Source: Myxococcaceae bacterium
Lineage (GTDB): Bacteria; Myxococcota_A; Polyangia; Polyangiales; Ga0077539
Assembly (NCBI GenBank): GCA_004297725.1
Contig: SCUS01000160.1
Coordinates: forward strand, 5,615 to 69,614
Reading direction: 5' to 3'
Length of the DNA stretch: 64,000 nt
Shown here: in pieces, positions 2,230-52,194 of the stretch
Numbering within the stretch: the first letter of the stretch is position 1
How the letters are laid out: every line of letters begins with the position of its first letter
The notes under the pieces: model-generated
What the model was told of the DNA's origin: nothing
Seen by the model: the letters and a program-made list of their open reading frames with translations, nothing else
Databases searched by the model: none
Position numbers and translations under genes: made by a program

Positions 2230-2250
2230 GCAGACGGCCCGGGCTGCTGT

Positions 2251-2789
2251 CCGGTCGCTGCGCCCTGCGTCCGCGGGTTGGAAACCCTGATCCTTCCCAG
2301 AATCTTCACGGCGTTGCGCAAGGTCGTCATGGAGGGGGCGTCTCGTGGGCTACCGCCGACTCCGCGCCCGCGGACGGCCCGCGAGCGGGCCTGCGGTCGC
2401 TGAAGTCGGAGCCTGGAACTGACCGCCCCGTCTTCACGGGGCTTGCTGCAGGAGCGCCGGTTGCTGGCGCAACCGTCGGAAGGTCACCGACCGCCGCGAT
2501 GGAACTCCATGCGACGATCAGCGGCTTGTCCTGCTGCTGCGCGTGAGCACCTACGTCCTCTTCATCGAGCGCTCCAGCGCTCGGTGCGCCTGCAGAGAGT
2601 CCCGCGAAGGCGGGACGATCAGCGCCAGGATCCGACTTCAGCGGTTGCAGGCCCGAAGGGCCGACCGCAACCGCGGAGTCGGCGGTAGCTCGATGGCGTC
2701 CACACCAGAAACGCGCTTGCGCGCAACGCCGTGAACATTCCGGGAAGGATCAGGGTTTCCAACCCGCGGACGCAGGGCGCAGCGATCGG
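2251..2789. repeat. Nested palindromic, multi-hairpin element, copy A (candidate large structured RNA or MITE)
   Basis: Outer arms 2251-2321 vs 2717-2789 are near-perfect inverted repeats. Inner arms 2350-2417 vs 2625-2688 also pair. The core holds several local hairpins. The core (2350-2688) recurs at 47376-47722 in the same orientation. Confidence 0.8.
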
Positions 2790-2836
2790 CCGACACCGAT
2801 GGCCGCGTGAATGAGGGCGTGTCGGACCCGGAGCCT

Positions 2837-3367
2837 CTACCAGGCCACGCCGGCGCGACGGGCGAACACCTCGTCGAGCAGGGCCTCGAGCCTCGCCGCC
2901 TCGGCCGCGCTGAAGGCCGAGGGGAGGTGCGAGTCGAGGTCGAGCACCGCGCGCACCCGGCCGTCGCCGTCGCGCACCGGGACCACCAGCTCCGATCGGG
3001 TCGCCCCGTCGCAGGCGATGTGCCCGGGGAAGGCCTCCACGTCGGGCACGAGCTGCGTCTCGCCAGAGCGCGCCGCGGCCCCGCACACGCCTCGGGCGAA
3101 GTCGATGCGCAGGCACCCCATGGGGCCCTGGTAGGGGCCGACGGCCAGCGTCGACTCGGCCACGCGACGGTAGAAGCCGCACCAGCTCGCCTGGGAGAAC
3201 ACCTCCCAGAGCAGGCACGCCAGCGTCGACTGCAGCGCCACCGCGTCGCCCTCGCCCTCGAGCGCCGAGAGCACCTGCGGCAGCGCGGCGTCGAAGCGGG
3301 CCAGCCGGACGGCCTCGGGCAGCGACGCCCCACGATCGACGCGCGGCAGGTCGAGGCCCTCGCTCAT
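2837..3367 (-). CDS. GAF domain protein, free methionine-(R)-sulfoxide reductase (YebR/MsrC)-like
   Basis: Start taken at MSEGLDL (ATG 3365-3367) within ORF 2837..3418. GPYQGPMGCLRIDFARGVCGAAA...VPDVEAFPGHIACDGATRSELVVPV matches the fRMsr GAF signature. Confidence 0.85.
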   Translation of the reverse strand: MSEGLDLPRVDRGASLPEAVRLARFDAALPQVLSALEGEGDAVALQSTLACLLWEVFSQASWCGFYRRVAESTLAVGPYQGPMGCLRIDFARGVCGAAARSGETQLVPDVEAFPGHIACDGATRSELVVPVRDGDGRVRAVLDLDSHLPSAFSAAEAARLEALLDEVFARRAGVAW

Positions 3368-3528
3368 GGGCGCTTCGTACAACACCCTCCGGGCGAACTC
3401 CACGGCGCCCGGAGCCACGCGCCCCCGCCGAGCCCTGGACGGGCCGATCTATCGGGTTTCTGGGGCATTTTGCCCCGTGTGGCACCGCTTGACGACCCAC
3501 CGGAGGAGCGCGGATACCGAGGCCTGCG

Positions 3529-4605: not shown

Positions 4606-7600
4606 TGCTGCTGCAGCGGCTCGTCGCCTTCGCGGTGCAGCGCCCGTGGGCGGTGATCGTCGTGACGATGGTCGCGGCGCTCATCGGCTACGGGCAGATG
4701 CTGGGCGTCCCGATCGAGGCCTTCCCGGACGTGACCAACCTCCAGGTGCAGGTGATCACCCTCTCGCCGGGCAGGGCGGCCGAGGAGGTCGAGCGCCAGG
4801 TCACCATCCCCATCGAGCGAGAGCTCGCGGGCACGCCCGACATGGTCGACCTGCGCTCCATCTCGGTGTTCGGGCTCTCGCAGATCACCTGCACCTTCGA
4901 CGACGGCGCCGACGACTTCGTGGCGCGCACCCGGGTGGGAGAGCGGCTGCGGGAGGTCGACCTGCCGCAGGGGCTCATCGCCCACCTCGGCCCGGAGTCC
5001 ACCCCCGTGGGCGAGGTCTACCGCTACACCGTCGAGGCCCCGGGCATGACCGCCATGGACCGTCGAGGCCTGCAGGACTGGGTGGTCTCGCGCTACCTGC
5101 GCCGCGTCCCGGGCGTGGCGGACGTGGTGTCCTTCGGAGGCTTCCAGCGGCAGTACCAGGTGCGCGTCGACCCCAACCGGCTGTCCGCGCGGGGGCTGAG
5201 CGTGCCGGACGTGGTGTCGGCGCTGCAGCGCTCGTCGGGCGCCGCGGGCGGCAACTACCTCCGCCACGGCGCCGAGGAGTACGTCGTCCGCGGCCTCGGC
5301 TACCTGCAAGACCCGCGGGACCTCGCGCACATCGCCCTCTCCGCGCCGCACGGCGTGCCGGTGCACCTCGACGACGTCGCCCAGGTGGTGCTCGGCCACG
5401 TCCCTCGCCGTGGCGTCGTCGGGCGCGGCGCCGAGAACGAGTCCCCGGAAGGCATCGTGCTGCTGCGCAAGCGCTCGCACCCGGCCATCGTGCTCGACGA
5501 GATCCACCAGGCCGTCGAGCGGCTCAACCGCGAGGTGCTGCCGAGGGGCGCGCGGGTGGTCCCCTACTACGACCGCACCAACCTGATGGAGCGCTCGCTC
5601 CGCACCGTGAGGCACAACCTCGTCGAGGGCGCCGGCTTCGTCATCCTCGTGCTGATGCTCTTCCTCGGCGCGTGGCGAGGGCCGCTCGTGGTCGCCACGG
5701 TCATCCCCCTCGCGCTGCTCACGGCCTTCACCGGCCTGCGCCTCCTGAAGATGCCCGCCAACCTCATCTCCCTGGGCGCCGTGGACTTCGGCATCCTCGT
5801 CGACGGGGCGGTGATCTTCGTCGAGACCGTCTACCACGTCGGCGCCACGCGCCCGGACCTCAACCGCGCCGACGTGGTGCGCGAGGCCGCCGCGCAGGTG
5901 GTGCGCCCGGTGGTGTTCTCGCTCGCGATCATCACCGCCGCGCTGCTCCCGATCTTCACCATGGAGCGCGTCGAGGGCCGCATCTTCGCGCCGATGGCCC
6001 TCACCTACGGCTTCGCCCTGCTGGGCGCGCTCGTCTGGTCGCTCACCGTCGTGCCCGCGCTCTCCCGCCTGGCCATCCGCCTGCCGGGCCCCGGGCACCA
6101 CCCCGAGCCGCGCTGGGTCTCCGCGCTGCGCCGCGGCTACGAGCGGGTCATCGCCTGGGCGCTCTCGCACCGCGCCGCCGTGGGGGCGGTGGCGCTCGCC
6201 GCGCTCGTCACCGCCGGGCTCGCCGGGCGCACGCTGGGCTCGGAGTTTCTCCCGGAGCTCAACGAGGGAGGGATGTTCGTGAGCGCGCTCTTCCCCTCGT
6301 CGCAGTCGCTGGAGGAGGGCGAGCGCATCGTGCCGCAGCTTCGCGCCATCATCCGAAGCTTCCCGGAGGTGCGCGAGGCCGTCTCGCAGCTCGGCCGCCC
6401 GGAGGACGGGACCGACCCCGCCCCGGTCAACATCGCCCAGATCATGGTGAGCCTTCGCCCGGAGGGCGAGTGGACCACCGGGCGCTCCCGCGCTCAGCTC
6501 GTGGAGGCCATGCGCGCCGCGCTCACCCGCGTGCCCGGGGTGCAGTACATCTTCTCCCAGCCCATCGTCGACAACGTGCTGGAGAGCATCTCCGGCATCA
6601 AGGGCAAGGTCGCCATCAAGATCTACGGCGACGACCTGGACGCGATGCAGCGCCTCGCCGAGCAGACCCGCGACGCCATCGCGCCGGTGCGCGGCGTGCG
6701 CGACCTCGGGCTCTACCAGACCGGCGTGGTGCCGCAGCTGCGGCTCGACATCGACCGCGAGGCCATCGCCCGCTACGGGCTGCGCGTGGCCGACGTCGAC
6801 GACGTCATCGAGGCCGCCATCGGCGGCGACGTGGCCACGGAGATCTGGGAGGGAGAGCGCCGCGTCGAGGTGGCCGTGCGCCTCGCGGAGCCCTTCCGCG
6901 TGGGCATCGACCGCATCCGGGAGATTCCCGTGAGCACGCCCTCGGGCGCGAGGGTGCCGCTCGGGGCGCTGGCCACGGTGCACGTCGGCACCGGGCGCGC
7001 GGCCATCCAGCGCAACCAGGGATCGCGCTTCATCGCGCTCAAGTTCAACATCGAGGGCCGCGACCTGGGGAGCGTGGTGACCGAGGCGCGCTCCCGCGTC
7101 CGGAGCGCGGTGCACCTGCCGAGCGGGTACACCATGACCTGGGGCGGGGAGTTCGAGAGCCAGCAGCGCGCGATGCGCCGGCTCGCGTTCATCCTGCCCG
7201 TCGTCCTGCTGCTCATCTGCCTGCTGCTGTACGGGGTGTTCCAGCGGATGCGCAGCGCGCTGGTGGTGCTGGCCGCGGCGCCCATGTGCCTGCCCGGCGC
7301 GGCGCTCACGCTCATGGCCGCGGGGGTGAACGTCTCCGTGTCGGCCATCGTCGGCGCCATCGCGCTGCTGGGGCAGACGGTGCTCGCGGGCGTGGTGGTG
7401 GTGTCGTCCATCAACGAGCTCCGCGACCAGGGGATGACCCTCACCGAGGCCGTCACCGAGGGCACCGCCCGGCGCATGCGCGCGGTGCTCATCACCGCCA
7501 CCCTCGCCGCGCTGGGCCTGCTCCCGGCGGCGATGTCCCACGCCATGGGCAGCGAGACGCAGCGGCCCTTCGCGCTGGTGATCGTAGGGGGCGTGCTGGT

Positions 7601-9210: not shown

Positions 9211-12200
9211 ATGCTTGAACGAAGAAGATCGAGCGCCCTCCCAGCATGGCTGGCGCTCCTCGCCTGGGCCGCGATCGCGGGCTGTACCGACGGATCGTCC
9301 GTCGTCGGTGGCACCAGCGACGCCTCCGTGGACGGAGGCTCCGACATCGGCCCGCGCTGCGCGGCCAACGAGTCGACCTGCGGCGGGCGCTGCGTGGACC
9401 TCCAGGCCAGCCGGGAGAACTGCGGCACCTGCGGCAACGCGTGCCCGGGCTCGCAGGTCTGCGTCGCCGGGAGCTGCCAGATCGGCTGCCCCCCGAGCCA
9501 GCAGGCCTGCGGCGGCGCGTGCGTCACGCTCTCCACCGACCGCGCCCACTGCGGCGCCTGCGGCAACGCGTGCGGCGCCGGCCAGGTCTGCGCCATGGGC
9601 GTCTGCGGCCTGGAGTGCGGCCCGATGCTGGCCCTCTGCGGCGGCGCCTCGGACGCCGGGGCCTCCGACGCCGGGACCTCCGCGCGCTACTGCGCCGACA
9701 CCCGCACCGACCGCCTGAACTGCGGCGGCTGCGGCGCCATCTGCCCCGCCGGGCAGGTGTGCAACGGCGGCGCCTGCGAGGTGTCGTGCCTCGCCGGGCA
9801 GACCACCTGCTCGGGCATCTGCCGTGACCTGCAGACCGACCGCAACCACTGCGGCGCCTGCGGCACCGTGTGCCCCGGCGGCGAGGTCTGCAACGCGGGC
9901 GTCTGCGAGGTGTCGTGCCTCGCCGGGCAGACCACCTGCTCGGGCGTCTGCCGCGACCTGCAGACCGACCGCGCCCACTGCGGCGCGTGCGGCACCGCCT
10001 GCCCCGCGGGCCAGGTCTGCGCCGGCGGCACCTGCGAGGTCTCCTGCCTCTCGGGCCTCACCACCTGCTCGGGCACCTGCCGTGATCTCCAGACCGACCG
10101 CGCCCACTGCGGCGCCTGCGACAACGCCTGCCCCGCGGGACAGGTCTGCGCCGGCGGCGCCTGCGCCGTGTCGTGCCTCTCGGGGCTCAACAACTGCTCG
10201 GGCACCTGCCGTGATCTCCAGACCGACCGCGCCAACTGCGGCGCCTGCGGCACCACCTGCCCCACCGGGCAGGTGTGCAACGCGGGCGCCTGCGAGGTGT
10301 CGTGCCTCGCGGGCCAGACGGCCTGCTCGGGCACCTGCCGCGACCTGCTCACCGACCGCGCCAACTGCGGCGCCTGCGGCACCACCTGCCCGTCGGGCCA
10401 GGTCTGCGCCGCGGGCTCCTGCCAGGTGTCGTGCGGCACCGAGCTCGACGCCTGCTCGGGCGTCTGCCGTGACCTGCAGACCGACCGCAACCACTGCGGC
10501 GCCTGCGGCAACGTGTGCCCCGGCGGCCAGGCCTGCGTGGCCGGCGCCTGCGTGGTGTCGTGCAGCACCGGGCTCTCCAACTGCTCGGGCGTCTGCCGCG
10601 ACCTCAACAACGACCGCCTCAACTGCGGCGCGTGCGCCAACGTCTGCGCCGCGGGGCGCATCTGCAACGCCGGGGTCTGCGAGCTCTCGTGCGTCGCGGG
10701 CCTCAACAGCTGCAGCGGCACCTGCCGCGATCTGCAGACCGACCGCGGCAACTGCGGCACCTGCGGAAACACCTGCGCCGCGGGCCAGATCTGCAACGCC
10801 GGGGCGTGCGAGCTCTCCTGCGCCGCGGGGCTCACGAGCTGCGGCGCCACCTGCCGCGACACCACCACCGACCGGCTGAACTGCGGCGCCTGCGGGACCA
10901 TCTGCGCGGCCGGCACGGTCTGCGTGGGCAGCGCCTGCGTGGTGTCGTGCAGCGCGGGGCTCACCACCTGCGCGGGCGTCTGCCGCGACACGTCCACCGA
11001 CCGGGCCAACTGCGGCGGCTGCGGCCGCGCGTGCGGCGCGGGCGAGGTCTGCACCGCGGGCGCCTGCGTGCTCTCCTGCGGGCCGGGCCAGACCGCCTGC
11101 ACGGGCGTCTGCCGCGACACGGCCACCGACCGCGCCAACTGCGGCGGCTGCGGCCGCGTCTGCACCGCGGGCCAGGTGTGCACCGCGGGCGTCTGCGCGG
11201 CGGGCTGCTCCCCGACGCAGACCGTGTGCGGGGGTCAGTGCACCACCGTCGCGATCGATCCGGACAACTGCGGGACCTGCGGGCGGGTGTGCGCCGAGCC
11301 GGCCAACTCCTTCGGGGCCTGCGCGGCGGGCGTGTGCTCCTTCGTGTGCGCCCCGGGCTTCGCGGACTGCAACCGCGTCTCCACGGACGGCTGCGAGGTC
11401 AACACCCAGACCACCGTGACGAGCTGCGGCGGCTGCGGGACGGTCTGCGCCCCGGCCAACGCCGTGGCCGCCTGCGTGGCGGGCGCGTGCCGCGTCGGGA
11501 GCTGCAACGCGGGCTTCGCCGACTGCAACAACAACCCGGCCGACGGCTGCGAGGTCAACCTCGCCACCAGCGTCGGCAACTGCGGCGCCTGCGGCAACGC
11601 GTGCGCCACCGGGAGCTGCTCCGGCGGCGTGTGCGGGCTGCGCTGCAACAGCGGCGCGCGCCAGGTGCTGTCCATCGGCGTGGCGGCCTCGACGCTGCTG
11701 CCCAACCTCCCGTCGGGCGTGACCGTCACCACGGTGACCGACGCGCAGTGGCGGGCGATGACGCCGGCGCAGTTCCAGTCGTACCAGCTCATCATCATGG
11801 GGGAGGGCGCGTCGTCGACCAACTACCAGAGCACCGTCGACACGCGCGCCACCTGGGCGCCCGCGGTCAACGGGCGCATCGCCCTCACCGGCCTCCACAT
11901 GATGGGCCACGGCCAGGGTCTGACGGTGCTGCGCGCCACCTGGGCGTGGCTGCTCTCGGGCCCCGGCACCGCGCTCTACGTGGACGGCCAGTTCGGCGGC
12001 ACCTTCCGCGGCTTCAGCCAGCTCGTGCCCATCGGCACCTTCACCGGCACCGGCGGCCTCAGCCTCGACGCGGTGACCGTGACCGTCCCCTCGCACCCGG
12101 TGATGGCGGGCTCCAGCAGCGCCTCGCTCTCCAACTGGGGGCAGTCGGTGCACTCGCAGATCACCTCGGCGCCGACGGGCTTCGACACCCTCGCCACCGC

Positions 12201-15402: not shown

Positions 15403-16389
15403 TCAGTCGCCCGTCGGAACCACCCGGAAGCGCGTCCCGGTGGTGACCGAGGTGCAGTCCGGGGCGCGGGGCGTGGCGTCGATGCGACCGCCGGGGCACA
15501 CCACGAAGGCGAGGCTTCCGTCGGGGTGCTCGAGGCCCACGGCGGCGCGGGTGGGGGCGTTCATCGGCTGGCCGGTGATGGTCTCGTAGATGAAGTCCAT
15601 CGAGGCGTCGGCCTCGTTGTAGATCACCTCGAAGGAGGCGGTGCCGGCGAGGGGCATCGACGTCTCGCCGCTGTAGAAGCGCGCGTTCTTCCACTGGATG
15701 ATCCAGCGGCGGATGGGGGCGCTGCCCACGACGACGGAGCACACCCCGTCGGCCCCGGTGACCAGGTCGACCCAGTAGGGAGCGATCACCCCGTTGGGCG
15801 CGCGCGTGCTGGGGATCGTCCCTCCGATGGCCATCGTCGGGTCGATCGGCATCTGGCTGATGAAGCCGTTGGAGTAGACCTGCAGCCCGAGGCTCTGCGG
15901 CACCGGGATGCCGAAGAAGCGCAGGGAGAAGGGAGCGACCAGCGTGGTCGACTCGTCGTCCGCGTTCACCAGCACGCGCTGTGCGCCGGGCAGCGTGCAC
16001 GCCTCGACCAGCGTCGCGTCGGTGACCGTGCGTCGGTAGCGGGCGACCCCGCCCGCGTCGACAGGGGGTGTTCCCACGTCGACAGGGGGCGTTCCCACGT
16101 CGACAGGGGGTGTCCCCACGTCGACAGGGGGTGTTCCCACGTCGACAGGGGGTGTCCCCACGTCGACAGGGGGCGTTCCCACGTCGACAGGGGGCGTTCC
16201 CACGTCGACAGGGGGCGTTCCCACGTCGACAGGGGGCAGCGTGGCGTCGGTGGGGGCGCCGGTGTCCGACGCGCCGCCGTCGCTCTCGATGGGACCGGTG
16301 TTGCCGCTGCCGCGGGCGTCGCATGCGCCGAGCGCGGCGAGCAGGGAGATCGACCCGAGGACGCGGATCGAAGGGAGGGAGGACTTCAT
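15403..16389 (-). CDS. Secreted lipoprotein with a PPVDVGT x ~9 linker and a beta-sandwich (NIDO-like?) C-terminal domain
   Basis: ATG at 16387-16389 gives MKSSLPSIRVLGSISLLAALGAC (lipobox). The upstream GTG at 16404 is less likely. 48-bp gap to the MBL gene on the same strand. Confidence 0.7.
   Translation of the reverse strand: MKSSLPSIRVLGSISLLAALGACDARGSGNTGPIESDGGASDTGAPTDATLPPVDVGTPPVDVGTPPVDVGTPPVDVGTPPVDVGTPPVDVGTPPVDVGTPPVDVGTPPVDAGGVARYRRTVTDATLVEACTLPGAQRVLVNADDESTTLVAPFSLRFFGIPVPQSLGLQVYSNGFISQMPIDPTMAIGGTIPSTRAPNGVIAPYWVDLVTGADGVCSVVVGSAPIRRWIIQWKNARFYSGETSMPLAGTASFEVIYNEADASMDFIYETITGQPMNAPTRAAVGLEHPDGSLAFVVCPGGRIDATPRAPDCTSVTTGTRFRVVPTGD
16057..16239. repeat. 21-bp tandem repeat (~8.7 units) encoding PPVDVGT
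   Basis: GTCGACAGGGGGYGTYCCCAC units run head to tail and in frame inside CDS 15403..16389. Confidence 0.95.
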
Positions 16390-16460
16390 GCGATGGAGCT
16401 TCACGGGTCCTCCAGCGCTATCCCGGCGCGGCGACGCGCGTCAACGACGGGCGTCCGCGC

Positions 16461-16828
16461 TGGTGTCCGGAGTACGAGCGCGAGGTTGGCGGCGGGGAGT
16501 TCTTCGGTACGACCGCGAGGCGTCGTTACCCGGAGCCAGACCCTGAGCGTTAGCGAGGGGGAGCGCCCTCGACCGCCGTCAGCGCGTACCTCCGACGCTG
16601 CCCTACTCGCGAGAAGCAGCGGAGATTCCGGACGCGTATTGAGGCGTGGGCGGGATCTACCCCTCGCTAACGCTCAGGGTCTGGCTCCGGGTAACGACGC
16701 CTCGCGGTCGTACCGAAGAACTCCCCGCCGTGGGCCTCGCGATCGTACCGGGGACTCCTCGCTGACGGCCACGCGCTCGTACCGGGGACTCCCCGACGAC
16801 AGCCTCGCGCTCGTACTCCGAACTCCAG
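16461..16828. repeat. Composite palindromic intergenic element containing a perfect 71-bp inverted repeat
   Basis: Arms 16490-16560 and 16660-16730 are exact reverse complements with a 99-nt spacer. Extra ~30-nt CCTCGCG.TCGTACCG.GGACTCC-type copies follow on the right (16733-16819). One inverted copy lies on the left (16469-16485). Confidence 0.9.
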
Positions 16829-16834
16829 GTCAGC

Positions 16835-19101: not shown

Positions 19102-21744
19102 ATGATCCGCCGCGCCGCCCTCCCCCTGCTCATCGCCGCTGCCGCTGCCTGCTCGTCGGACCCGGCGCCCGGCGCTCCTCCCTCCGACGCGGAGACCCCC
19201 GCCGACGTCGTCGTCGCCATCGACCTGGGAAGCCCGGTCGATGTGCCCACGGTCGATGTGCCCACGGTCGATGTGCCCACGGTCGATGTGCCCACGGTCG
19301 ATGTGCCCACGGTCGATGTGCCCGCGGTCGATGTGCCCGCGGACCGTGGCGCTCCGGTCGATGTCGGGGTCGATGCCGGGGCGCGCGATGCGGGCTTCGA
19401 CGTGGTGGATGTCCTGGTGGTGGTCGATGTCGCGACGGACGTGGGCCGTGACGCGGGCGCTCCCGACACCGGTCCGGTCGACGCCGGGACCCCCGACGCG
19501 GGCTGCGTCTCTCCCCGTCGCCTCTGCGGCGAGGTGTGCACCGACACCGCGAGCGACAGCGCCCACTGCGGCGGCTGCGGGGTGCGCTGCGCCGGGGTGT
19601 GCAGCCGCGGAGCCTGCACCCAGGTGGCCCAGGTGGCGGCGGGAACGGACTTCACCTGCGCCCGGCTGGTCGACGGCGCGGCGCGCTGCTGGGGCAACAA
19701 CGAGAACGGGCAGCTCGGCGACGGAACCGGCGGGACGCGCACCGGGCGCTGGCGGCCGACGCCGGTGATCGGCCTCGCCAACGCCGTGCAGATCGTGGCG
19801 GGCAACACCCACGCATGCGCCCGCCTGGCCGACGGGACGGCGCAGTGCTGGGGGCGCAACAGCAGCGGGCAGCTCGGCGGCGGGACGGCCGGGGGCCTCG
19901 GGCTGACGCCTCGCGCGGTCGTCGGCCTCGTCGGCGTTGCAGAACTCTCCCTGGGGGAGAACTTCACCTGCGCCCGGCTCAACGACGGGACGGTGCGCTG
20001 CTGGGGCAACAACCTCAGCGGGCAGATGGGCCTCGGGACGCAGACCGGCTCGGTGCTCACTCCGACGATGGTCCCGGGCTTGAGCGGGGTGGTGTCGATC
20101 TCGTCGGGGGTGGCTCACACCTGCGCGGTGCTCTCCGACGGGACGGCGCGCTGCTGGGGGATGAACTTCCAGGGCCAGAGCGGCGCGGGCGCCGGGGTGG
20201 ATCGGGCGCTGTCTCCCGTGATGGTCCAGGGGCTGAGCGGCGCCGTGGGGATCTCCCTCGGCAGCTTCCACTCCTGCGCATGGCGCTCCGACGGGACCGC
20301 TCGCTGCTGGGGGGACAACAGCGGCTACGACCTTGGCGACGGCACCAGCGCCCGCCGCGACGCGGCCGTGGCCGTGCTGGGCCTCGACCGGGTGGCGAAC
20401 CTCACCTCGGGCGCCTCGTTCACGTGCGCGCGGCGAACCGACGGCGCCGTGCTCTGCTGGGGCACCAACGCCCTCGGGCAGATGGGAGACGGAACCCTCG
20501 GCGGCGCCCAGATGACCCCGACGGTGGTTCCAGGGCTCGGGGCGGTGACGGAGGTCACGGCGCGAGGCAACCACGCCTGCGCCCGACGGATGGACGCGAG
20601 CGTCCGCTGCTGGGGAAGCGACGCGGCGGGAGAGCTTGGCGACGACGCGGGCCTCTCGGGCCACCGCACCCCGGAGACGGCGCTGGGCGTGCGGGCCGGC
20701 GCGGTGCAGGTCGCGGCGGGCGGAGAGCACACCTGCGCCCGCTTCGCAGACGGATCGGCGCAGTGCTGGGGCAGCGGCAACACCGGCGAGCTCGGCGACG
20801 GCGTCACGGCGAGGTCGCGGCACGTGCCCGTCGCGGTGAGCGGGCTCACGGGCGCCGCGGCGCTCGCGGCGGGGAGCTTCGGCACCTGCGCGAGGATGAC
20901 CGACGGGACGGTGCGCTGCTGGGGATACAACAGCGACGGACAGATCGGAGACGGCACCGAAGGGGGCACCCGCGCGACGCCGACGGTGGCGCTCGGGCTG
21001 AGCGGGGTGACCGACCTCGGGCTTGGGCAGACCTTCGCGTGCGCCCTCTCGGGAGGGAGCGTGCGGTGCTGGGGGAGCAACAACAACGGGAGGCTGGGGA
21101 TCAACTCCGCGGGGATGTACGGGATCCCCCGGGCGAGCAGCCCGGTGGTGGGGCTGAGCGGCGCGGCGGGGGTGGGCCTTGGGTTGTTTCACGCGTGCGC
21201 GTGGACCAGCGCGGGCGCGGCGCGGTGCTGGGGAGCCAACGACGACGGACAGCTCGGCGACGGCACCACCACGGCGCGCTGGGTGTCCACGGCGGTTCCG
21301 GGGACGGGCACCGTGACCGCCCTGGTCGGCGGCTACAGCCACACCTGCGCCCTGCGCTCCGACGGGACGGTGGCCTGCTGGGGCCGCAACTCCGCCGGGC
21401 AGGTGGGGGACGGCACCACCACGAGCCCACGCCCCGCGGCGATCGCGGTGGCCGGGCTGACGGGCGTGGCGCAGCTTGCGGCCGGGGAGTTTCACACCTG
21501 CGCCCGGAGGACGGACGGCACGGTGCGCTGCTGGGGCAACAACGACTACGGGCAGTGCGGCGACGACTCGCAGGGGGGCTCGCGGCCCTCGCCGGTGACG
21601 GTGCGCGAGCTCACGGGCGTGGCGGAGATCGCCGCGGGCGCCAACCACACCTGCGCTCGGATGATGGACGGGACGCTGCGCTGCTGGGGCAGCGACCGGA
21701 CGGGTCAGCTGGCGCTCGGAGCGCTCCGAACGCCGCGCTGGTGA
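19102..21744 (+). CDS. Secreted lipoprotein with a VDVPT linker, one Stig1-like Cys module and 14 RCC1 repeats
   Basis: ATG 19102 (MIRRAALPLLIAAAAAC). The track start at 19096 is TTG. Fourteen copies of ...H.CA...DG...CWG.N..GQLG.G. fit two 7-bladed RCC1 propellers. Confidence 0.85.
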   Translation: MIRRAALPLLIAAAAACSSDPAPGAPPSDAETPADVVVAIDLGSPVDVPTVDVPTVDVPTVDVPTVDVPTVDVPAVDVPADRGAPVDVGVDAGARDAGFDVVDVLVVVDVATDVGRDAGAPDTGPVDAGTPDAGCVSPRRLCGEVCTDTASDSAHCGGCGVRCAGVCSRGACTQVAQVAAGTDFTCARLVDGAARCWGNNENGQLGDGTGGTRTGRWRPTPVIGLANAVQIVAGNTHACARLADGTAQCWGRNSSGQLGGGTAGGLGLTPRAVVGLVGVAELSLGENFTCARLNDGTVRCWGNNLSGQMGLGTQTGSVLTPTMVPGLSGVVSISSGVAHTCAVLSDGTARCWGMNFQGQSGAGAGVDRALSPVMVQGLSGAVGISLGSFHSCAWRSDGTARCWGDNSGYDLGDGTSARRDAAVAVLGLDRVANLTSGASFTCARRTDGAVLCWGTNALGQMGDGTLGGAQMTPTVVPGLGAVTEVTARGNHACARRMDASVRCWGSDAAGELGDDAGLSGHRTPETALGVRAGAVQVAAGGEHTCARFADGSAQCWGSGNTGELGDGVTARSRHVPVAVSGLTGAAALAAGSFGTCARMTDGTVRCWGYNSDGQIGDGTEGGTRATPTVALGLSGVTDLGLGQTFACALSGGSVRCWGSNNNGRLGINSAGMYGIPRASSPVVGLSGAAGVGLGLFHACAWTSAGAARCWGANDDGQLGDGTTTARWVSTAVPGTGTVTALVGGYSHTCALRSDGTVACWGRNSAGQVGDGTTTSPRPAAIAVAGLTGVAQLAAGEFHTCARRTDGTVRCWGNNDYGQCGDDSQGGSRPSPVTVRELTGVAEIAAGANHTCARMMDGTLRCWGSDRTGQLALGALRTPRW
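19237..19341. repeat. 15-bp tandem repeat (7 units) encoding VDVPT
   Basis: GTCGATGTGCCCRCG x7, in frame in the RCC1 lipoprotein gene. Confidence 0.95.
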
Positions 21745-45269: not shown

Positions 45270-46319
45270 TCAGCCCACCCGCTCGGGCTCGATCTCCAGC
45301 GTCACCCCGAAGGCCTCCCTCACCCTCGACCGCACCCGCTCCGCCATCGCGAGGAGCGAGCGCGTCGTGCCGCCCCGGTTCACCAGCGCCAGCGCGTGGC
45401 GGCGCGAGACCCCTGCGCCGTCGACGGTCCACCCCTTGTCCACGCCCGCGCGCTCGATGAGCCAGCCCGCGGCCAGCTTCACCCGGCCGTCGGCGGTCGG
45501 CCACTGCGGCATCGACTCGCCCTCGCCGAGCGCCCCCTTCGCCCTCGCGGCCGCCGTCACCGCCCCGGCGGTCTCCGGGGCCACCAGGGGGTTGGTGAAG
45601 AACGACCCCGCCGTGCGCCCCTCCGGGTCGTCGGGGTCGTAGACCATCCCCTTGGCGCGGCGCAGCGAGAGCACCGTCTCCCGCACCTTCGCCAGCGTCG
45701 GCGCCCCCTCGCCCAGCGCCTTCTGAAGCTCTCCGTAGCGCAGCGCCGGGGCCCCGCCGCGGCGCAGCGCGAAGGCCACCGAGAGCACCGCGTAGCGCCC
45801 GCGCGCCTCCCGCTTGAACACGCTGTCGCGGTATCCGAACGCGCACTCCCTCGGGTGCAGCGTGCGCTGCGAGCGCTCTCGCCGGTCCCACACCCGCACC
45901 CCGGTGATGACCTCGGAGACCTCCTGTCCGTAGGCGCCCACGTTCTGCATCGGCGTGGCGCCCACGCAGCCGGGGATGCCCGACAGGCACTCCACCCCCG
46001 CGAGGCCCTGCGCCACCGACCAGGCCACGAAGTCGTCCCAGGGCTCTCCGGCGCAGAGCAGCACCCGCGCGGTGTCGCCCGCCTCCACCACCTGACGGCC
46101 GCGGGTGGCGACGCGGATCACCGTGCCGTCGAAGCCCTCGTCGGCGATCACCAGGTTGCTGCCGCCGCCCAGCAGCAGCACTGGCATCTTCGCCTCGTCG
46201 GCGGCGCTCACGGCCTCGATGAGCCCCTGCGTGGTGCGCGCCTCGCGGAAGGCCCTCGCCGGGCCGCCGAGGCCGAGCGTGGTGTAGGGCGCGAGGGGGA
46301 CGTCGTGGCGGGTGTTCAC
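45270..46319 (-). CDS. murB: UDP-N-acetylmuramate dehydrogenase
   Basis: GTG complement 46317-46319. PLAPYTTLGLGGPA, LLLGGGSNL, GIPG.VGATPMQNVGAYG, SFFTNP, KL.AGWLIE.AG..KG. Confidence 0.9.
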   Translation of the reverse strand: MNTRHDVPLAPYTTLGLGGPARAFREARTTQGLIEAVSAADEAKMPVLLLGGGSNLVIADEGFDGTVIRVATRGRQVVEAGDTARVLLCAGEPWDDFVAWSVAQGLAGVECLSGIPGCVGATPMQNVGAYGQEVSEVITGVRVWDRRERSQRTLHPRECAFGYRDSVFKREARGRYAVLSVAFALRRGGAPALRYGELQKALGEGAPTLAKVRETVLSLRRAKGMVYDPDDPEGRTAGSFFTNPLVAPETAGAVTAAARAKGALGEGESMPQWPTADGRVKLAAGWLIERAGVDKGWTVDGAGVSRRHALALVNRGGTTRSLLAMAERVRSRVREAFGVTLEIEPERVG

Positions 46320-47257
46320 GCGGTGATCGCCCGGAGCCGCTCCTCGAGGAAGGCCTGCGCGGTGATGGGCTCGTAGCGCGCGGGCCGCTCGGGGGTGACC
46401 GTGGTCGCCACCGGGGCGAGCACCACCTCGGGCCGGGGGTGCGTGAAGAAGGGCAGCGAGTAGCGGGTGACGTTGGGACCCGACGGGTTGACCACCCGGT
46501 GCGTCGTCGCGGGGATCACCCCGTTGGTCGCGCGCTGCAGCATGTCGCCCGCGTCGAGCACGATCTGCCCGGAGAGCGAGTGCACGGGCAGCCAGGAGCC
46601 GTCGCGGGTCTGCAGCTCGAGGCCGCCGGTGGTGCTCTCGACCAGCAGCGTGAGGAGGTTGATGTCCTCGTGGGCCGCGGCGCGCACCGCCCCCTCGGGC
46701 ACCCCAGCGGGCACCGGCGGATAGTGGATGAGCCGCAGGATGCTGTTGCCGTCGACGGCCATGTCCGAGAAGTGGGCGTCGGGCAGCCGGAGGTAGCGGG
46801 CGACGGCGCGCAGCGAGGTGAGCGCCACGGACTCCAGCGCGCGGTAGAGGGAGAGGGAGACCTCGCGGAAGTCGGCGACGCTCGGGTCGTCGGGCCACAC
46901 GTTGGGGTCATAGAAGGCCGAGTGCTCGGGGCGGATGGCGTCCTGGCCGACGTGCCAGAACTCCTTGAGGTCGGCGAGGCGGGCGCCCACCGCGCGCTCC
47001 CTGCCGAAGGGGACGTAGCCGCGGTTGCCCTTCGAGGCGGGCACCACGCAGCGCTGCTTGGCCTCGTCGGGCAGCGCGAAGAGCCGCGCGGTGACCTCGA
47101 AGGCGCGGCGGATGAGCTCCTGCGGGACGCCGTGGCGGTCGAGGGTGACGAAGCCGAACTCGGTGAGCCCGTCGCCGAAGCGACGGACGAAATCCTCTTG
47201 GGAAGCCGCGTCACCGTGGGTGAACGCGTGAAGGTCCACGACCGGAATCGAGCGCAT
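46316..47257 (-). CDS. 2OG-Fe(II) oxygenase (isopenicillin N synthase-like family)
   Basis: MRSIPVVDL..F, GFV.L..HGV, facial triad AHEDINLLTLL ... TTHRVVNP, RYSLPFF. Its stop overlaps the murB start (GTGA). Confidence 0.85.
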   Translation of the reverse strand: MRSIPVVDLHAFTHGDAASQEDFVRRFGDGLTEFGFVTLDRHGVPQELIRRAFEVTARLFALPDEAKQRCVVPASKGNRGYVPFGRERAVGARLADLKEFWHVGQDAIRPEHSAFYDPNVWPDDPSVADFREVSLSLYRALESVALTSLRAVARYLRLPDAHFSDMAVDGNSILRLIHYPPVPAGVPEGAVRAAAHEDINLLTLLVESTTGGLELQTRDGSWLPVHSLSGQIVLDAGDMLQRATNGVIPATTHRVVNPSGPNVTRYSLPFFTHPRPEVVLAPVATTVTPERPARYEPITAQAFLEERLRAITA

Positions 47258-47325
47258 GGCGCGATGGGTATCACAACTGCGAGGGGCGCCGCACAGGGCG
47301 CCCTGCGCGGGCCCGGTCTCGTCGT

Positions 47326-47736
47326 TGCTCTCATCTTCGCGGAGACGCAGCCCGACGCACGTTGTCCATCGCCGCGGAGACGCCGCCCACTCCGCGGTTG
47401 CGGACGGCCCTTCGGGCCTGCAACCGCTGAAGTGGGAGCCTGGAACTGGGCGCCCCGCCGTCGCGGGGCTTCCTGTAGGAGCGCCGGTTGCTGGCGCAAC
47501 CGTCGGGAGGTCATCGACCGCCGCGATGGAACTCCCTGCGACGATCAGCGCCTTGTCCTGCTGCTGCGCGTGAGCACCTACGTCCTCTTCATCGAGCGCT
47601 TCAGCGCTCGATGCGCCTGCAGAGAGTCCCGCGCAGGCGGGACGTTCATCTCCAGGACCCCACTTCAGCGGTTGCAGGCCCGCTCGCGGGCCGCCCGCAA
47701 CCGCGGAGTGGGCGGCGTTTTCACGAAGTGAGAGCA
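47326..47736. repeat. Multi-hairpin element, copy B (same family and orientation as 2251-2789)
   Basis: Core 47376-47722 aligns colinearly with 2350-2688. An outer stem pairs 47326-47339 with 47724-47736. It lies in the divergent intergenic region between the oxygenase and PLD genes. Confidence 0.8.
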
Positions 47737-47797
47737 GTGATGAGGCCCCCCCGGTGCGGTAGACCGCCGTCGCGCGGCGGCCGTACTCTCGCGGGCG

Positions 47798-49054
47798 ATG
47801 AGCTGCTCCCCCCGATGGATCGCGGGCCTCGCCGCGGCGCTCGCCCTGGGCGTCGGCTGCCGCGACGCCGCGGCGCCGATCGCCCCCGACGACGTGGTCT
47901 TCGTCACCGACGCCCCCGCCGCCGTGGACGCCCGGGCGACGACGGACGCCGCCGTCGAGGGGGACGCCCCCGTCGACCTCGATGCGGCCTCCCCCTCCGA
48001 CGACGCCGCCGTCGCCGACGATGTCGCCGCCACCGACGCGGCGCGGCCCGTCGACGCCCGCTCCGACGCGGGGCGCTCCTGCGTGTGCCCGACGCTGCCG
48101 GCGACGTGCTCGCCGCCCGCGCTCGACGTGCCCTCGTTCACCACCGGAGGGGCGCTGCTGGGGCAGCTCATGGGGCTGATCTCCTGCGCCGACACGAGCC
48201 TCCACGCCGCCCTCTACGAGACGCTCTGGACCTGCCTGCCCGACGCCATCCTCGCCCGCCTCGCGGCCGCCCCGGCGCTCACCGTGCAGCTCGTCTACGA
48301 CGACGAGACCTGCCCCCGCGTGGGGGGGACGCTGATGTGCCCGCTGGCCCGCCTCGACGGCCACCCCCGGGTGAGCCTGCTGCCCGACGCGCGCAGCGCG
48401 CTGATGCACCACAAGTTCTTCGTCGTCGACGGCGAGCGCGTCTGGGTCGGGTCGGCCAACGGCAGCGAGCAGTCGTACTGCCGCGACGCCAACGACGCCG
48501 TCGTGCTCGGCGAGCCGGCGATCGTCGGGGCCTTCGAGGGGGAGTTCCAGCGGATGTTTCGCGACCACGCCTTCGGGCCGATCGTGGCGTCGTCGCCGGT
48601 GAGCGCGGGGCGCTACGCGGCGTACTTCAGCCCCCGCTCGCCCACGTCGAGCCCGGCGCGGTGGTTCACGGACATGGTCGGGGCCATCGCCGAGGCGCGC
48701 ACCTCGGTGGACTTCGTGATCTCCGCCTGGACGCGCACCGAGCTCTCCGACGCGATGATCGCCGCGAGGATGCGGGGCGTGGCGGTGCGGGGCATCGTCG
48801 CGCACGAGTACCTCAACGACGCGCCCGCGATGGCGCTGCTCGCCGCGGGGGTGCCGGTGCGCGCGGGCAACGTGCACAGCAAGCTGCTCATCCTCGACGG
48901 GCAGACGGTGATCACCGGCTCGGCCAACTGGTCGGCCGCGGCGTGGGCCAACAACGAGAACAGCCTGTGGATCCGCGACGCCTCGGCGGCGGCGGCCTAC
49001 GGGGAGTACTTCACCCGGCAGTACGGGGCGGCGACGGCCCCGGCGGGGATGTGA
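47798..49054 (+). CDS. Phospholipase D-family (two HKD motifs) lipoprotein
   Basis: LAAALALGVGC lipobox and a D/A/P-rich linker. HKD motifs are HHKFFVVDGERVWVGSANGS and HSKLLILDGQTVITGSANWS. Confidence 0.85.
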   Translation: MSCSPRWIAGLAAALALGVGCRDAAAPIAPDDVVFVTDAPAAVDARATTDAAVEGDAPVDLDAASPSDDAAVADDVAATDAARPVDARSDAGRSCVCPTLPATCSPPALDVPSFTTGGALLGQLMGLISCADTSLHAALYETLWTCLPDAILARLAAAPALTVQLVYDDETCPRVGGTLMCPLARLDGHPRVSLLPDARSALMHHKFFVVDGERVWVGSANGSEQSYCRDANDAVVLGEPAIVGAFEGEFQRMFRDHAFGPIVASSPVSAGRYAAYFSPRSPTSSPARWFTDMVGAIAEARTSVDFVISAWTRTELSDAMIAARMRGVAVRGIVAHEYLNDAPAMALLAAGVPVRAGNVHSKLLILDGQTVITGSANWSAAAWANNENSLWIRDASAAAAYGEYFTRQYGAATAPAGM

Positions 49055-49061
49055 CGCCCGC

Positions 49062-51468: not shown

Positions 51469-52194
51469 ATGGTGCGCCGCCTTCGTGAAAGCCTCATCGG
51501 CCTCGCCGCGATCGCCTCGGTCGGGTGCTCCATCGCGCTCGATTTCAGCAGGTCCAACCTGCCGGCCTCGCGCGACGGCGGCGCCCCGCTGGACGTGCCC
51601 CCGCTCACCGATCTCCCCTCGGACACCTCCGAGGTGATCGACGCGCCGACGCCGCCCGACGCGAGCGACGTCCCCGTCGGCATGGACGGCCCCGATGCCT
51701 CGGACGCCCCCGACGCCTCGGACGCCCCCGACGCCTCGGACGCCCCCGATGCCTCGGATGCGACGGATGCGACCGACGCCCCCGAAGCGATGGACGTGGA
51801 GGACGTCGTCGATGCGCCCGATGCGACCGACGCCCCCGAGGGGATGGACGCCTTCGACGCCCCCGACGTCTTCGACGCCCCCGACGCCTTCGACGCGCCC
51901 GACGTCTTCGACGCGCCCGACGTCTTCGACGCGCCCGACGTCCGCGACGCGGGGCCCTCGTGCGACGCCGACCTCACGCGCGACCCGCTGAACTGCGGCG
52001 CCTGCGGCCGGCGCTGCGCCACGACGCCGTGCATGGCGGGCGTCTGCACCTGGTGCCGCGCGCCTCTTTCGCTCTGCAGCGGCAACTGCTACGACCTCCT
52101 CACGTCTGCGCAGCACTGCGGCACGTGCACGACGCGCTGCAGCGGATCGACCCCCAACTGCTGCCAGGGCGCCTGCCGCGCCCGGTGTAACTGA
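51469..52194 (+). CDS. Lipoprotein with DAPDAS/DAPDVF repeats and a C-terminal Stig1-like Cys-rich module
   Basis: LAAIASVGC lipobox and a long acidic tandem repeat. The C-terminus reads DPLNCGACGRRC....C..GVC. Confidence 0.7.
   Translation: MVRRLRESLIGLAAIASVGCSIALDFSRSNLPASRDGGAPLDVPPLTDLPSDTSEVIDAPTPPDASDVPVGMDGPDASDAPDASDAPDASDAPDASDATDATDAPEAMDVEDVVDAPDATDAPEGMDAFDAPDVFDAPDAFDAPDVFDAPDVFDAPDVRDAGPSCDADLTRDPLNCGACGRRCATTPCMAGVCTWCRAPLSLCSGNCYDLLTSAQHCGTCTTRCSGSTPNCCQGACRARCN

Follow-up and report, generated by a model that had tools for sequence, protein, structure and literature searches.

Two intergenic copies of a long palindromic element, copy A and copy B, are found in the stretch of DNA analysed here (the window, 64,000 nucleotides of a contig from a Myxococcaceae bacterium), and they belong to a previously undescribed repeat family of uncultured Myxococcales, where it occurs in a narrow lineage. 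Although the family is new, the type of object, a palindromic miniature mobile repeat, is known; it is comparable to the miniature inverted-repeat transposable elements (MITEs) and to the REPINs formed from repetitive extragenic palindromes (REPs), and the element is probably non-autonomous and mobilised in trans. The two copies had drawn attention in a sequence-only reading, in which their differences were taken as the mark of selection on secondary structure. The compensatory changes on which that reading was built are indeed real and, over the 28 copies now assembled, far beyond chance, but they are local, are not specific to RNA, and come without support for a long-range or overall fold.

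Copies of the element in the window and in related genomes

By blastn, window 2353-2685 aligns colinearly and on the same strand with 47383-47715 (88.4% identity over 336 nt, E = 6e-122), so that the two co-oriented look-alike copies described in the sequence-only reading are genuine; no third copy was found within the window, either by blastn or with an nhmmer profile built from the 28 copies. Both are long imperfect palindromes, for which a repeat search gave arms of ~81-85 nt with 77-78% complementarity plus terminal arms of 38 nt (89%). The predicted folds of copies A and B have energies of -266.7 and -250.5 kcal/mol, with z = -14.9 and -15.3 relative to dinucleotide shuffles. The outer limits first proposed for copy B, 47326-47736, are close to the real inverted-repeat ends, 47318-47744, and its position between the divergent starts of a 2-oxoglutarate (2OG) oxygenase gene and a phospholipase D (PLD)-like gene was confirmed, both genes being identified by Pfam. 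As had been proposed, the element does not go with any one neighbouring gene: copy A has a different setting, in which a GH15 hydrolase gene (stop at 2229) and a GAF-domain gene (2837-3448, minus strand) converge on it with their 3′ ends.

Further copies were sought by scanning an exact 20-mer from the element centre against one genome per species. This gave 29 loci with 23 true copies, 20 of them in the Myxococcaceae metagenome-assembled genome (MAG) CBIHPK01, two in the Myxococcales MAG JAUSAZ01 and a partial one in CAIOSS01. Scanning metagenome contigs with the end sequence added four copies, here denoted by their locus numbers L035 (on a 1.13-Mb contig), L092, L101 and L131, and one more is present in L154. 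Plasmid and phage collections held no similar sequence, and neither of two scan matches among viral contigs matched the element by blastn.

The distribution within CBIHPK01 is informative, as 19 of its 20 matches are located at contig ends, in the form of 13 left and 6 right halves with unique, non-matching flanks. It follows that this genome holds 14-20 copies and that the repeat breaks the assembly. Pairing the contig ends via shared 9-nt flanks to rebuild whole copies gave no pairs. CBIHPK01 is a close relative of the window organism, since window 1-2296 matches its contig L010 at 91%. The element is thus present in multiple dispersed copies, two in the window and 14-20 in CBIHPK01, each with different flanks. 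All 28 copies are intergenic and stand among ordinary chromosomal genes; by a crude gene call based on GC content at third codon positions, flanks towards gene 3′ ends are as numerous as those towards 5′ ends (16 of each), and nine flanks are 1-40 nt from a stop codon.

The family alignment (28 copies, 352 columns) defines a family-wide core of ~335 bp, running from GCCGCCCACTCCGCGG to CCGCGGAGTGGGCGGC. The core ends are sub-palindromes of 50-60 nt, called H1 and H1′, which are inverted relative to each other; inward of them each arm carries a GC-rich 7-bp hairpin with a 4-nt loop (H2 and H2′), and the asymmetric centre of ~150 nt, ~90% conserved across the family, contains the conserved hairpins H3 and H5. 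The genomes were scanned with a pattern that overlaps H3, and the conservation of this hairpin among the MAG copies is therefore in part a matter of ascertainment. Column variability is lowest in H1 and H1′ (1-4%) and highest in the H2 stems and the mid-centre (12-17%).

Beyond the core, every complete copy is again an inverted repeat, but divided into subtypes, which brings the element to ~410 bp, or ~580 bp in the long variants. The standard subtype ends in CTSAKCGTTG (copy B, L092, L020, L025 and L014 and, with divergence, L006, L017, L131, L011 and L018), a second one in CCCACGTGATGWGCATC (L035, L012, L016 and L029), and a long subtype has ~50 further nt (L001, L008, L018 and L159). In the 'X' subtype, with CAGACGG termini, the core is enclosed by further inverted-repeat layers, as in copy A (2231-2809), where the X form takes up the whole space from the GH15 gene to the convergent GAF gene; X arms are seen again at L010, L007, L003, L024 and L028. 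The left outer arm of copy B also carries a 35-nt extra segment that is without counterpart in its right arm and in other copies, and which could be a small duplication or insertion.

The element is polymorphic between relatives. Orthologous B loci were obtained through homologues of the oxygenase as the anchor gene, and in one of them (L160, 87% nucleotide identity) window position 47284 is joined directly to 47757, i.e. the site is empty for copy B, with an indel covering window 47285-47756. In the closest relative (L156, 89%) a 771-nt GT2 gene is found at the copy B spot, L152 lacks the PLD gene as well as the element, and L159 has a long-type copy at the spot, which continues up to the end of the contig. 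Copy A is also present at the orthologous site in L010, and its insertion therefore predates the split of the two genomes. In three more distant relatives (L161, L164 and L166), which have neither X nor core, homology ends exactly at the GH15 stop codon (2229-2231), where the long element form begins.

Gene content around both loci is itself variable. The interval from the LysR gene to the 2OG oxygenase gene (window 47258-49061) differs in every close relative and is an indel hotspot, containing the PLD gene and the element in the window, a PLD-like gene and the GT2 gene in L156, a PLD-like gene only in L160, nothing in L152, and another element subtype in L159. Downstream of GH15, the genes likewise differ per relative (L161, L164 and L166): a histidine kinase gene, one for a MarR regulator, or a different one again.

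Compensatory changes in local hairpins

Copies A and B differ in 39 core columns. Every sequence difference listed in the sequence-only reading is present, and the loop changes among them are real: TCTTCA versus CCGTCG is the H2 hairpin, with one compensatory T-A to C-G pair and one loop change, GAAG versus GCAG is a difference in the H2′ loop, and CC versus TC one in the H5 loop, while ACC versus ATC falls in a central helix that lacks support. However, the differences are not limited to loops, since in 8 of the 39 columns by a local-hairpin model, or 13 by a long-range model, a single change has cost one of the copies a pair. The cleanly compensatory pairs number five in the local model (columns 13-62, 23-51, 24-50, 86-91 and 291-340) and two in the long-range model.

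The differences also include the two long-range stem positions that had been singled out earlier (CCGCCGAC/GTCGGCGG in copy A versus CCGCCCAC/GTGGGCGG in copy B, and GAAGTCGG/CCGACTTC versus GAAGTGGG/CCCACTTC). The swaps are real on both sides, but they are parts of one four-fold event, an exchange between C and G in all four AGTGGG/CCCACT motifs of copy A (alignment columns 13, 62, 291 and 340), and the four motifs pair equally well locally (13-62, 291-340) and over the long range (13-340, 62-291). This four-fold swap is missing from the 25 other copies, the orthologue L010 among them. It fits a concerted change within a palindrome at least as well as selection at the RNA level; the change could come about through templating, both local and between the arms, or through conversion from a subfamily not seen here.

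The larger alignment separates the local from the long-range pairings. In the local-hairpin model, 18 pairs are changed on both sides over the 28 copies versus 11.7 in shuffles, a number that none of 500 shuffles reached, and the covariation score is 0.047 versus 0.032. The signal is strongest in H2 and H2′ taken together, where 268 of 269 cells are paired (99.6%) and 7 of the 14 pairs are compensatory, covering 30 cells; local covariation is 0.186 versus 0.069 in shuffles, and neither this value nor the percentage paired was reached in any of 500. When the same H2 columns are paired arm to arm, 87.1% of cells are paired versus 86.3% in shuffles (reached by 159 of 500), with a covariation of 0.021 versus 0.022. 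The proposal of selection on a long-range, rod-like secondary structure gains no support from this comparison, and in our reading selection for a dedicated long-range RNA fold is not what made copies A and B differ. In the central helices 76-88% of cells are paired, with only single outlier cells and no convincing compensation. The asymmetric centre is conserved in sequence, not in a supported structure.

The H2 hairpin occurs as six 'alleles' (TCCCGC, CCCCGC, CCCCTC, CCCTGC, CCCGGC and CCCCGT), all of them accompanied by the exact complement. A single base pair separates five of these from CCCCGC, and the same alleles are seen in the left and right arms in varying combinations. At L003 (~6135-6155 and 6520-6540), the outer X arms each contain a small hairpin whose 6-nt loop has opposite orientations in the two arms (TTGAAA versus TTTCAA), which is the change expected from intrastrand template switching, as in quasipalindrome mutagenesis.

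Probable mobility of the element and competing explanations

We favour mobile DNA because the copies are dispersed and break assemblies, an orthologous site is empty, the ends are defined, and one copy is flanked by an 8/9-bp duplication. The copies would be spread in trans by a transposase that is encoded elsewhere and recognises the repeated end structures, with insertion into intergenic DNA, often at 1-40 nt from a stop codon. Complementarity of the local hairpins would then be maintained within a DNA palindrome, giving rise to the 'compensatory' differences between A and B. Its maintenance might be due to selection for hairpins in single-stranded DNA or in read-through RNA, or to hairpin-templated repair or template switching combined with arm-to-arm and copy-to-copy conversion; conversion between palindrome arms, without a transcript, is a live explanation of the paired changes.

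Two kinds of enzyme can be put forward as candidates. One is a DDE transposase, suggested by the CT ends and by the 8/9-bp direct repeat ACGAAGGG(A/G) that stands immediately outside the CTCATCG...CGATGAG ends of L092. In the IS4 family of insertion sequences (IS), according to Table 1 of PMC2266710, IS10 has CT ends and 9-bp repeats and IS50 has CW ends and repeats of 8-9 bp. The likeness of the element to these subgroups is in two features, the 5′-CT ends of the standard form and the duplication at L092 only, and is a resemblance rather than membership: duplications of 8-9 bp are known from other IS families too, the element has further subtypes with CA or CC ends and 0-4-bp repeats, and no DDE/YREK transposase was found in the open reading frames (ORFs) screened. 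The other candidate is an HUH tyrosine transposase acting on hairpins, in the manner of REPINs.

Several observations weigh against mobilisation of this kind. A clean target duplication is seen in only one of four testable complete copies; copy B has only a 6-nt CCCGGT repeat that is displaced by 5 nt on one side, L035 only a 4-nt repeat (CAGG), and L101 and copy A none. No transposase was found among the 39 window ORFs, or beside other copies among the 25 listed of 90 Pfam families matching 78 ORFs, and neither the window nor the related loci nor the plasmid and phage collections yielded an autonomous element that shares the ends. The outermost termini vary by subtype (CTSAKCGTTG, CCCACGTGATG, CAGACGG), and conservation is highest in a subterminal part, contrary to what a textbook MITE would show. 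Lastly, the layers beyond the core are always inverted repeats without direct repeats at the junctions, which is not predicted by simple nested transposition with duplication.

This layering deserves attention of its own. In copy A, complementarity is ~97% in the outer X arms, ~60% in the next inner layer and ~85% in the core arms; its orthologue L010 has X and core in common with it, and the intervening 60-100 nt cannot be aligned. The layered inverted repeats may have arisen by nested insertion without duplication, by recombination between palindromes, or by outward growth through fold-back copying. Arm-to-arm identity, examined as a test of outward growth, showed no consistent gradient. That the outer segments are independent small repeats targeted by the core was rejected, because no solitary outer segment or X motif occurs in ~200 kb of related DNA (a sample biased to element-bearing loci). 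Mosaic or layered palindromic units, very long inverted arms and a short unique centre are also features of the bacterial interspersed mosaic elements (BIMEs) and foldback transposons, but BIMEs are built from 35-nt REPs, and foldback transposons are eukaryotic and have arms of tandem subrepeats.

Compared with the known bacterial MITEs (Correia/NEMIS, ERIC, RUP, Nezha and Bcr1), the family is similarly non-coding, dispersed, intergenic, bounded by inverted repeats, able to form a strong hairpin, and polymorphic between relatives; complementary arms of at least 100 nt, outer segments included, bound the element, and one copy has a target duplication. It differs in its size, 410-580 bp versus the 70-300 bp given for MITEs in PMC3733652, and in having arms of more than 100 nt that are themselves palindromic, versus MITE terminal inverted repeats (TIRs) of 15-30 bp. 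Its outermost termini are also less conserved than the subterminal H1, and it has no known parent IS.

The alternative that survives best, although we hold it to be unlikely, is a giant REPIN-like element, in which H1 and H1′ would be inverted REP-like hairpins and the element would be mobilised as single-stranded DNA by an HUH tyrosine transposase of the RAYT or TIRYT type. Such an enzyme would read hairpin structure, make no target duplication, and tend to land in or beside other palindromes. In agreement with this, the best-conserved parts are two inverted imperfect palindromes at the core ends, H2 and H2′ keep structure rather than sequence, three of the four complete copies are without a clean target duplication, and copies are centred in larger palindromes (the X arms of copy A, L003 and L024). 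In the REPIN/REP-RAYT and TIR-TIRYT families described by Di Nocera et al. (2013, PMC3733652), two inverted hairpin units likewise make a larger hairpin, REPs lie just downstream of stop codons as many of our copies do, and long self-complementary TIR families are known to flank RAYT-like genes. Hairpin complementarity kept by compensatory change, location downstream of genes and clustering with other palindromes are further points in common.

The 8/9-bp direct repeat at L092, on the other hand, speaks against a REPIN, and the dimensions do not agree well: the H1 units are 50-60 nt versus 20-40 nt for REPs, and the spacer of ~215 nt is conserved. There is no GTAG tag, a CGTC follows H1′ in some copies only, and the CGTC-REP architecture (8-9 bp stems, A-T at the first and second positions, and a CCA tail) is absent. 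No RAYT or other Y1 transposase gene was found among the ORFs screened in the window and beside other copies, in a search that was far from exhaustive.

It appears improbable to us that the element is a multi-copy structured RNA, be it a non-coding RNA gene or a cis-regulatory RNA, with its fold under selection and perhaps acting as a recombinase guide or bridge RNA. The very stable predicted folds would agree with it, as would the real compensatory changes in the local hairpins, the conserved asymmetric centre with H3 and H5, and the co-orientation of the two window copies. However, Rfam 15 gave no match in the whole window at the gathering score and only chance-level matches at both loci at E<=5, and consensus scans, which are weak for an organism of 74% GC, found no sigma-70-like promoter or intrinsic terminator inside the element. 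The long-range and central helices are without covariation, and the arm hairpins are mirror images, meaning that both strands form them alike and that no strand-specific G-U signal can arise. The contexts vary as well (convergent for A, divergent for B, with flanks facing 3′ and 5′ ends in equal number), and a dedicated RNA gene would not be expected from copies that break assemblies and are polymorphic between relatives.

Partners of the guide-RNA type, whose presence the sequence-only reading had suggested checking, were sought beside both copies, and no reverse transcriptase, TnpB, IS110 or other recombinase adjoins either one among the 39 window ORFs; the neighbours are GH15, the GAF protein, the 2OG oxygenase, PLD, LysR and MurB. 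A retron, an IS110 bridge RNA and a TnpB omega RNA were consequently rejected, given the absence of an adjoining partner gene and the multi-copy dispersed pattern. A likeness of the outer X motif (...GGGTTGGAAAC) to a CRISPR repeat was considered and received no support from the Rfam CRISPR-DR models. The data therefore do not require RNA, and the slight room that they leave for an RNA role counts to that extent against the mobile-DNA reading. Gene-proximal copies are probably transcribed by read-through and, by analogy with REPs and MITEs, which have been proposed as stabilisers or terminators (PMC3733652), such copies could act in the same way.

A coding function, which the sequence-only reading had correctly discounted, was rejected, as there is no 3-periodicity and the copies differ by 1-nt indels; the open frames in the element are no longer than chance in 74% GC sequence. 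An outward ribosome-binding site with ATG at the element ends (...GAGAGCAACGATGAG) was dropped too, because the downstream frames are short or off the real gene frames.

An inert relic, i.e. a decaying palindromic repeat without present mobility or function, in which hairpin-templated repair and gene conversion alone would keep the hairpins paired, appears to us as improbable as an RNA gene. The age of the copy A insertion, shared with L010, would suit such a relic, and so would the decayed long-range arm complementarity of the window copies, the loop inversion at L003 that points to template switching, and the rarity of clean target duplications. However, L035 and L101 have nearly perfect arms over ~100-140 nt, which is what young copies should show, close relatives are not alike at locus B, and the conservation of H1 far exceeds that of neutral intergenic DNA when the same sequences are compared. 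A truncated form argues in the same direction: L006 1-53 and L014 1-56 are distinct copies cut at the same alignment column inside H2, with the same 15 nt (GTGATCATTGATGAG) preceding the cut and unrelated DNA before that. From these sequences, it looks like a truncated variant that spread after its truncation, or else a recurrent junction; a shared gene end upstream was ruled out, as the two have no common peptide.

Least probable of all, in our view a very long shot, is that the core is a mobile element propagated as a hairpin, a type so far undescribed in bacteria, which would move or copy itself as a folded single strand and enter palindrome centres or extend its arms by fold-back, self-primed copying; this would explain the inverted layers, the subtype-specific layers of differing arm-to-arm perfection and the lack of direct repeats at the junctions, and the hypervariable yet paired H2 stems would then be by-products of self-templating or determinants of specificity.

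Feature coordinates, other repeats and implications

Table 1. Positions in the window of the two copies, their parts and the genes flanking copy B.
Feature	Position	Strand	Basis or remark
Copy B, whole element, 427 nt, up to the inverted-repeat ends (CTCGTCGTTGC ... GCAGTGATGAG)	47318..47744	+	Outer segments mutually inverted and homologous to those of L020, L025, L092 and L014
Copy B core, common to all family members (GCCGCCCACTCC ... GGAGTGGGCGGC)	47382..47716	+	blastn and alignment with copy A and 26 others
H1, left terminal sub-palindrome (CCCACTCCGCGGTTGCGGACGGCCC-loop-GGGCCTGCAACCGCTGAAGTGGG)	47386..47436	.	Variability 1-4%; local helices ~98% of cells paired; 3 compensatory pairs
H1′, right terminal sub-palindrome, mirror image of H1	47659..47712	.	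Two helices, 100% and 97% of cells paired; 2 compensatory pairs
H2, local hairpin GCCCCGC-CGTC-GCGGGGC	47452..47469	.	7 pairs, 4 compensatory; 99.4% of cells paired, 24 copies
H2′, right-arm local hairpin GTCCCGC-GCAG-GCGGGAC	47626..47643	.	7 pairs, 3 compensatory; 100% of cells paired; no covariation with H2
H3, conserved hairpin GCGCCGGTTGCTGGCGC, asymmetric centre	47481..47497	+	Nearly invariant in alignment
H5, perfect 10-bp hairpin CATCGAGCGC-TTCA-GCGCTCGATG, centre	47590..47613	+	99.4% of cells paired; 8 of 10 pairs invariant, 1 compensatory (L101)
35-nt extra segment, left outer arm of copy B, between 10-nt direct repeats CGCGGAGACG (47338-47347, 47373-47382)	47338..47382	+	Compared with L092 and L020
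Copy A, long 'X' form, 579 nt, termini CAGACGG ... (C)CGCGTG	2231..2809	+	Inverted repeat 2235-2319 with 2721-2805, 88%
Copy A core	2352..2686	+	Alignment and blastn; orthologous copy in MAG contig L010
2OG-Fe(II) oxygenase gene flanking copy B	46316..47257	-	Pfam DIOX_N, 2OG-FeII_Oxy
PLD-like lipoprotein gene flanking copy B	47798..49054	+	Pfam PLDc_2, PLDc

Other repeats were noticed in the course of the analysis. A second, unrelated family of long palindromes is represented at window 16449-16829, with arms of ~116 nt that are 86% complementary and a DNA fold of z = -19, and L014 (5525-5666) and L101 (1-83) carry further copies of it, likewise at contig ends as in the main family. The 11-mer CTGAGCGTTAG, which is the same as the standard-form end of the main family, bounds its centre (16543-16677); this shared terminus was considered as evidence of an insertion and rejected, as it lies inside a continuous palindrome and has no direct repeats. 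At L092 (~380-463), a 21-nt tandem repeat (GGGGCATGCGCACGAGCGGAT, 4 copies) abuts the left end of the element.

The window also contains repeats within coding sequence. At 9377-11395 there are ~14 tandem units of 129 nt encoding cysteine-rich repeats of the CxxCG type, a motif that is seen again at 11400-11611, 19534-19597 and 51969-52007. Window 19630-21729 holds ~12 repeats of ~153 nt with a conserved ...CWG.N..GQLG motif, which looks RCC1-like and has a similar counterpart in L024 (3356-3845). In-frame tandem repeats are present at 16010-16261 (21-nt CCCACGTCGACAGGGGGYGTT, ~12 times), 19205-19384 (15-nt CGGTCGATGTGCCCA, ~9 times) and 51655-51951 (18-nt, of the CCCGACGCCTCGGACGCC type).

Taken together, what appeared to be a structured RNA with covariation becomes the annotation of a repeat family, and a false call of an RNA gene is thereby avoided. 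The case illustrates a general trap, namely that selection at the RNA level cannot be read from compensatory changes alone when the sequences compared are two copies of a palindromic repeat. For the genomics of uncultured Myxococcota, it defines a repeat that fragments assemblies and marks spots of differing gene content, with five states of the LysR-oxygenase interval at locus B and a break of synteny at the GH15 stop codon at locus A. Since the H2 stems are among the most variable columns of the alignment and are yet paired almost without exception, the family may also serve as a data set for a question in REP and MITE biology, namely which of two processes, selection or hairpin-templated repair, maintains the complementarity of hairpins.

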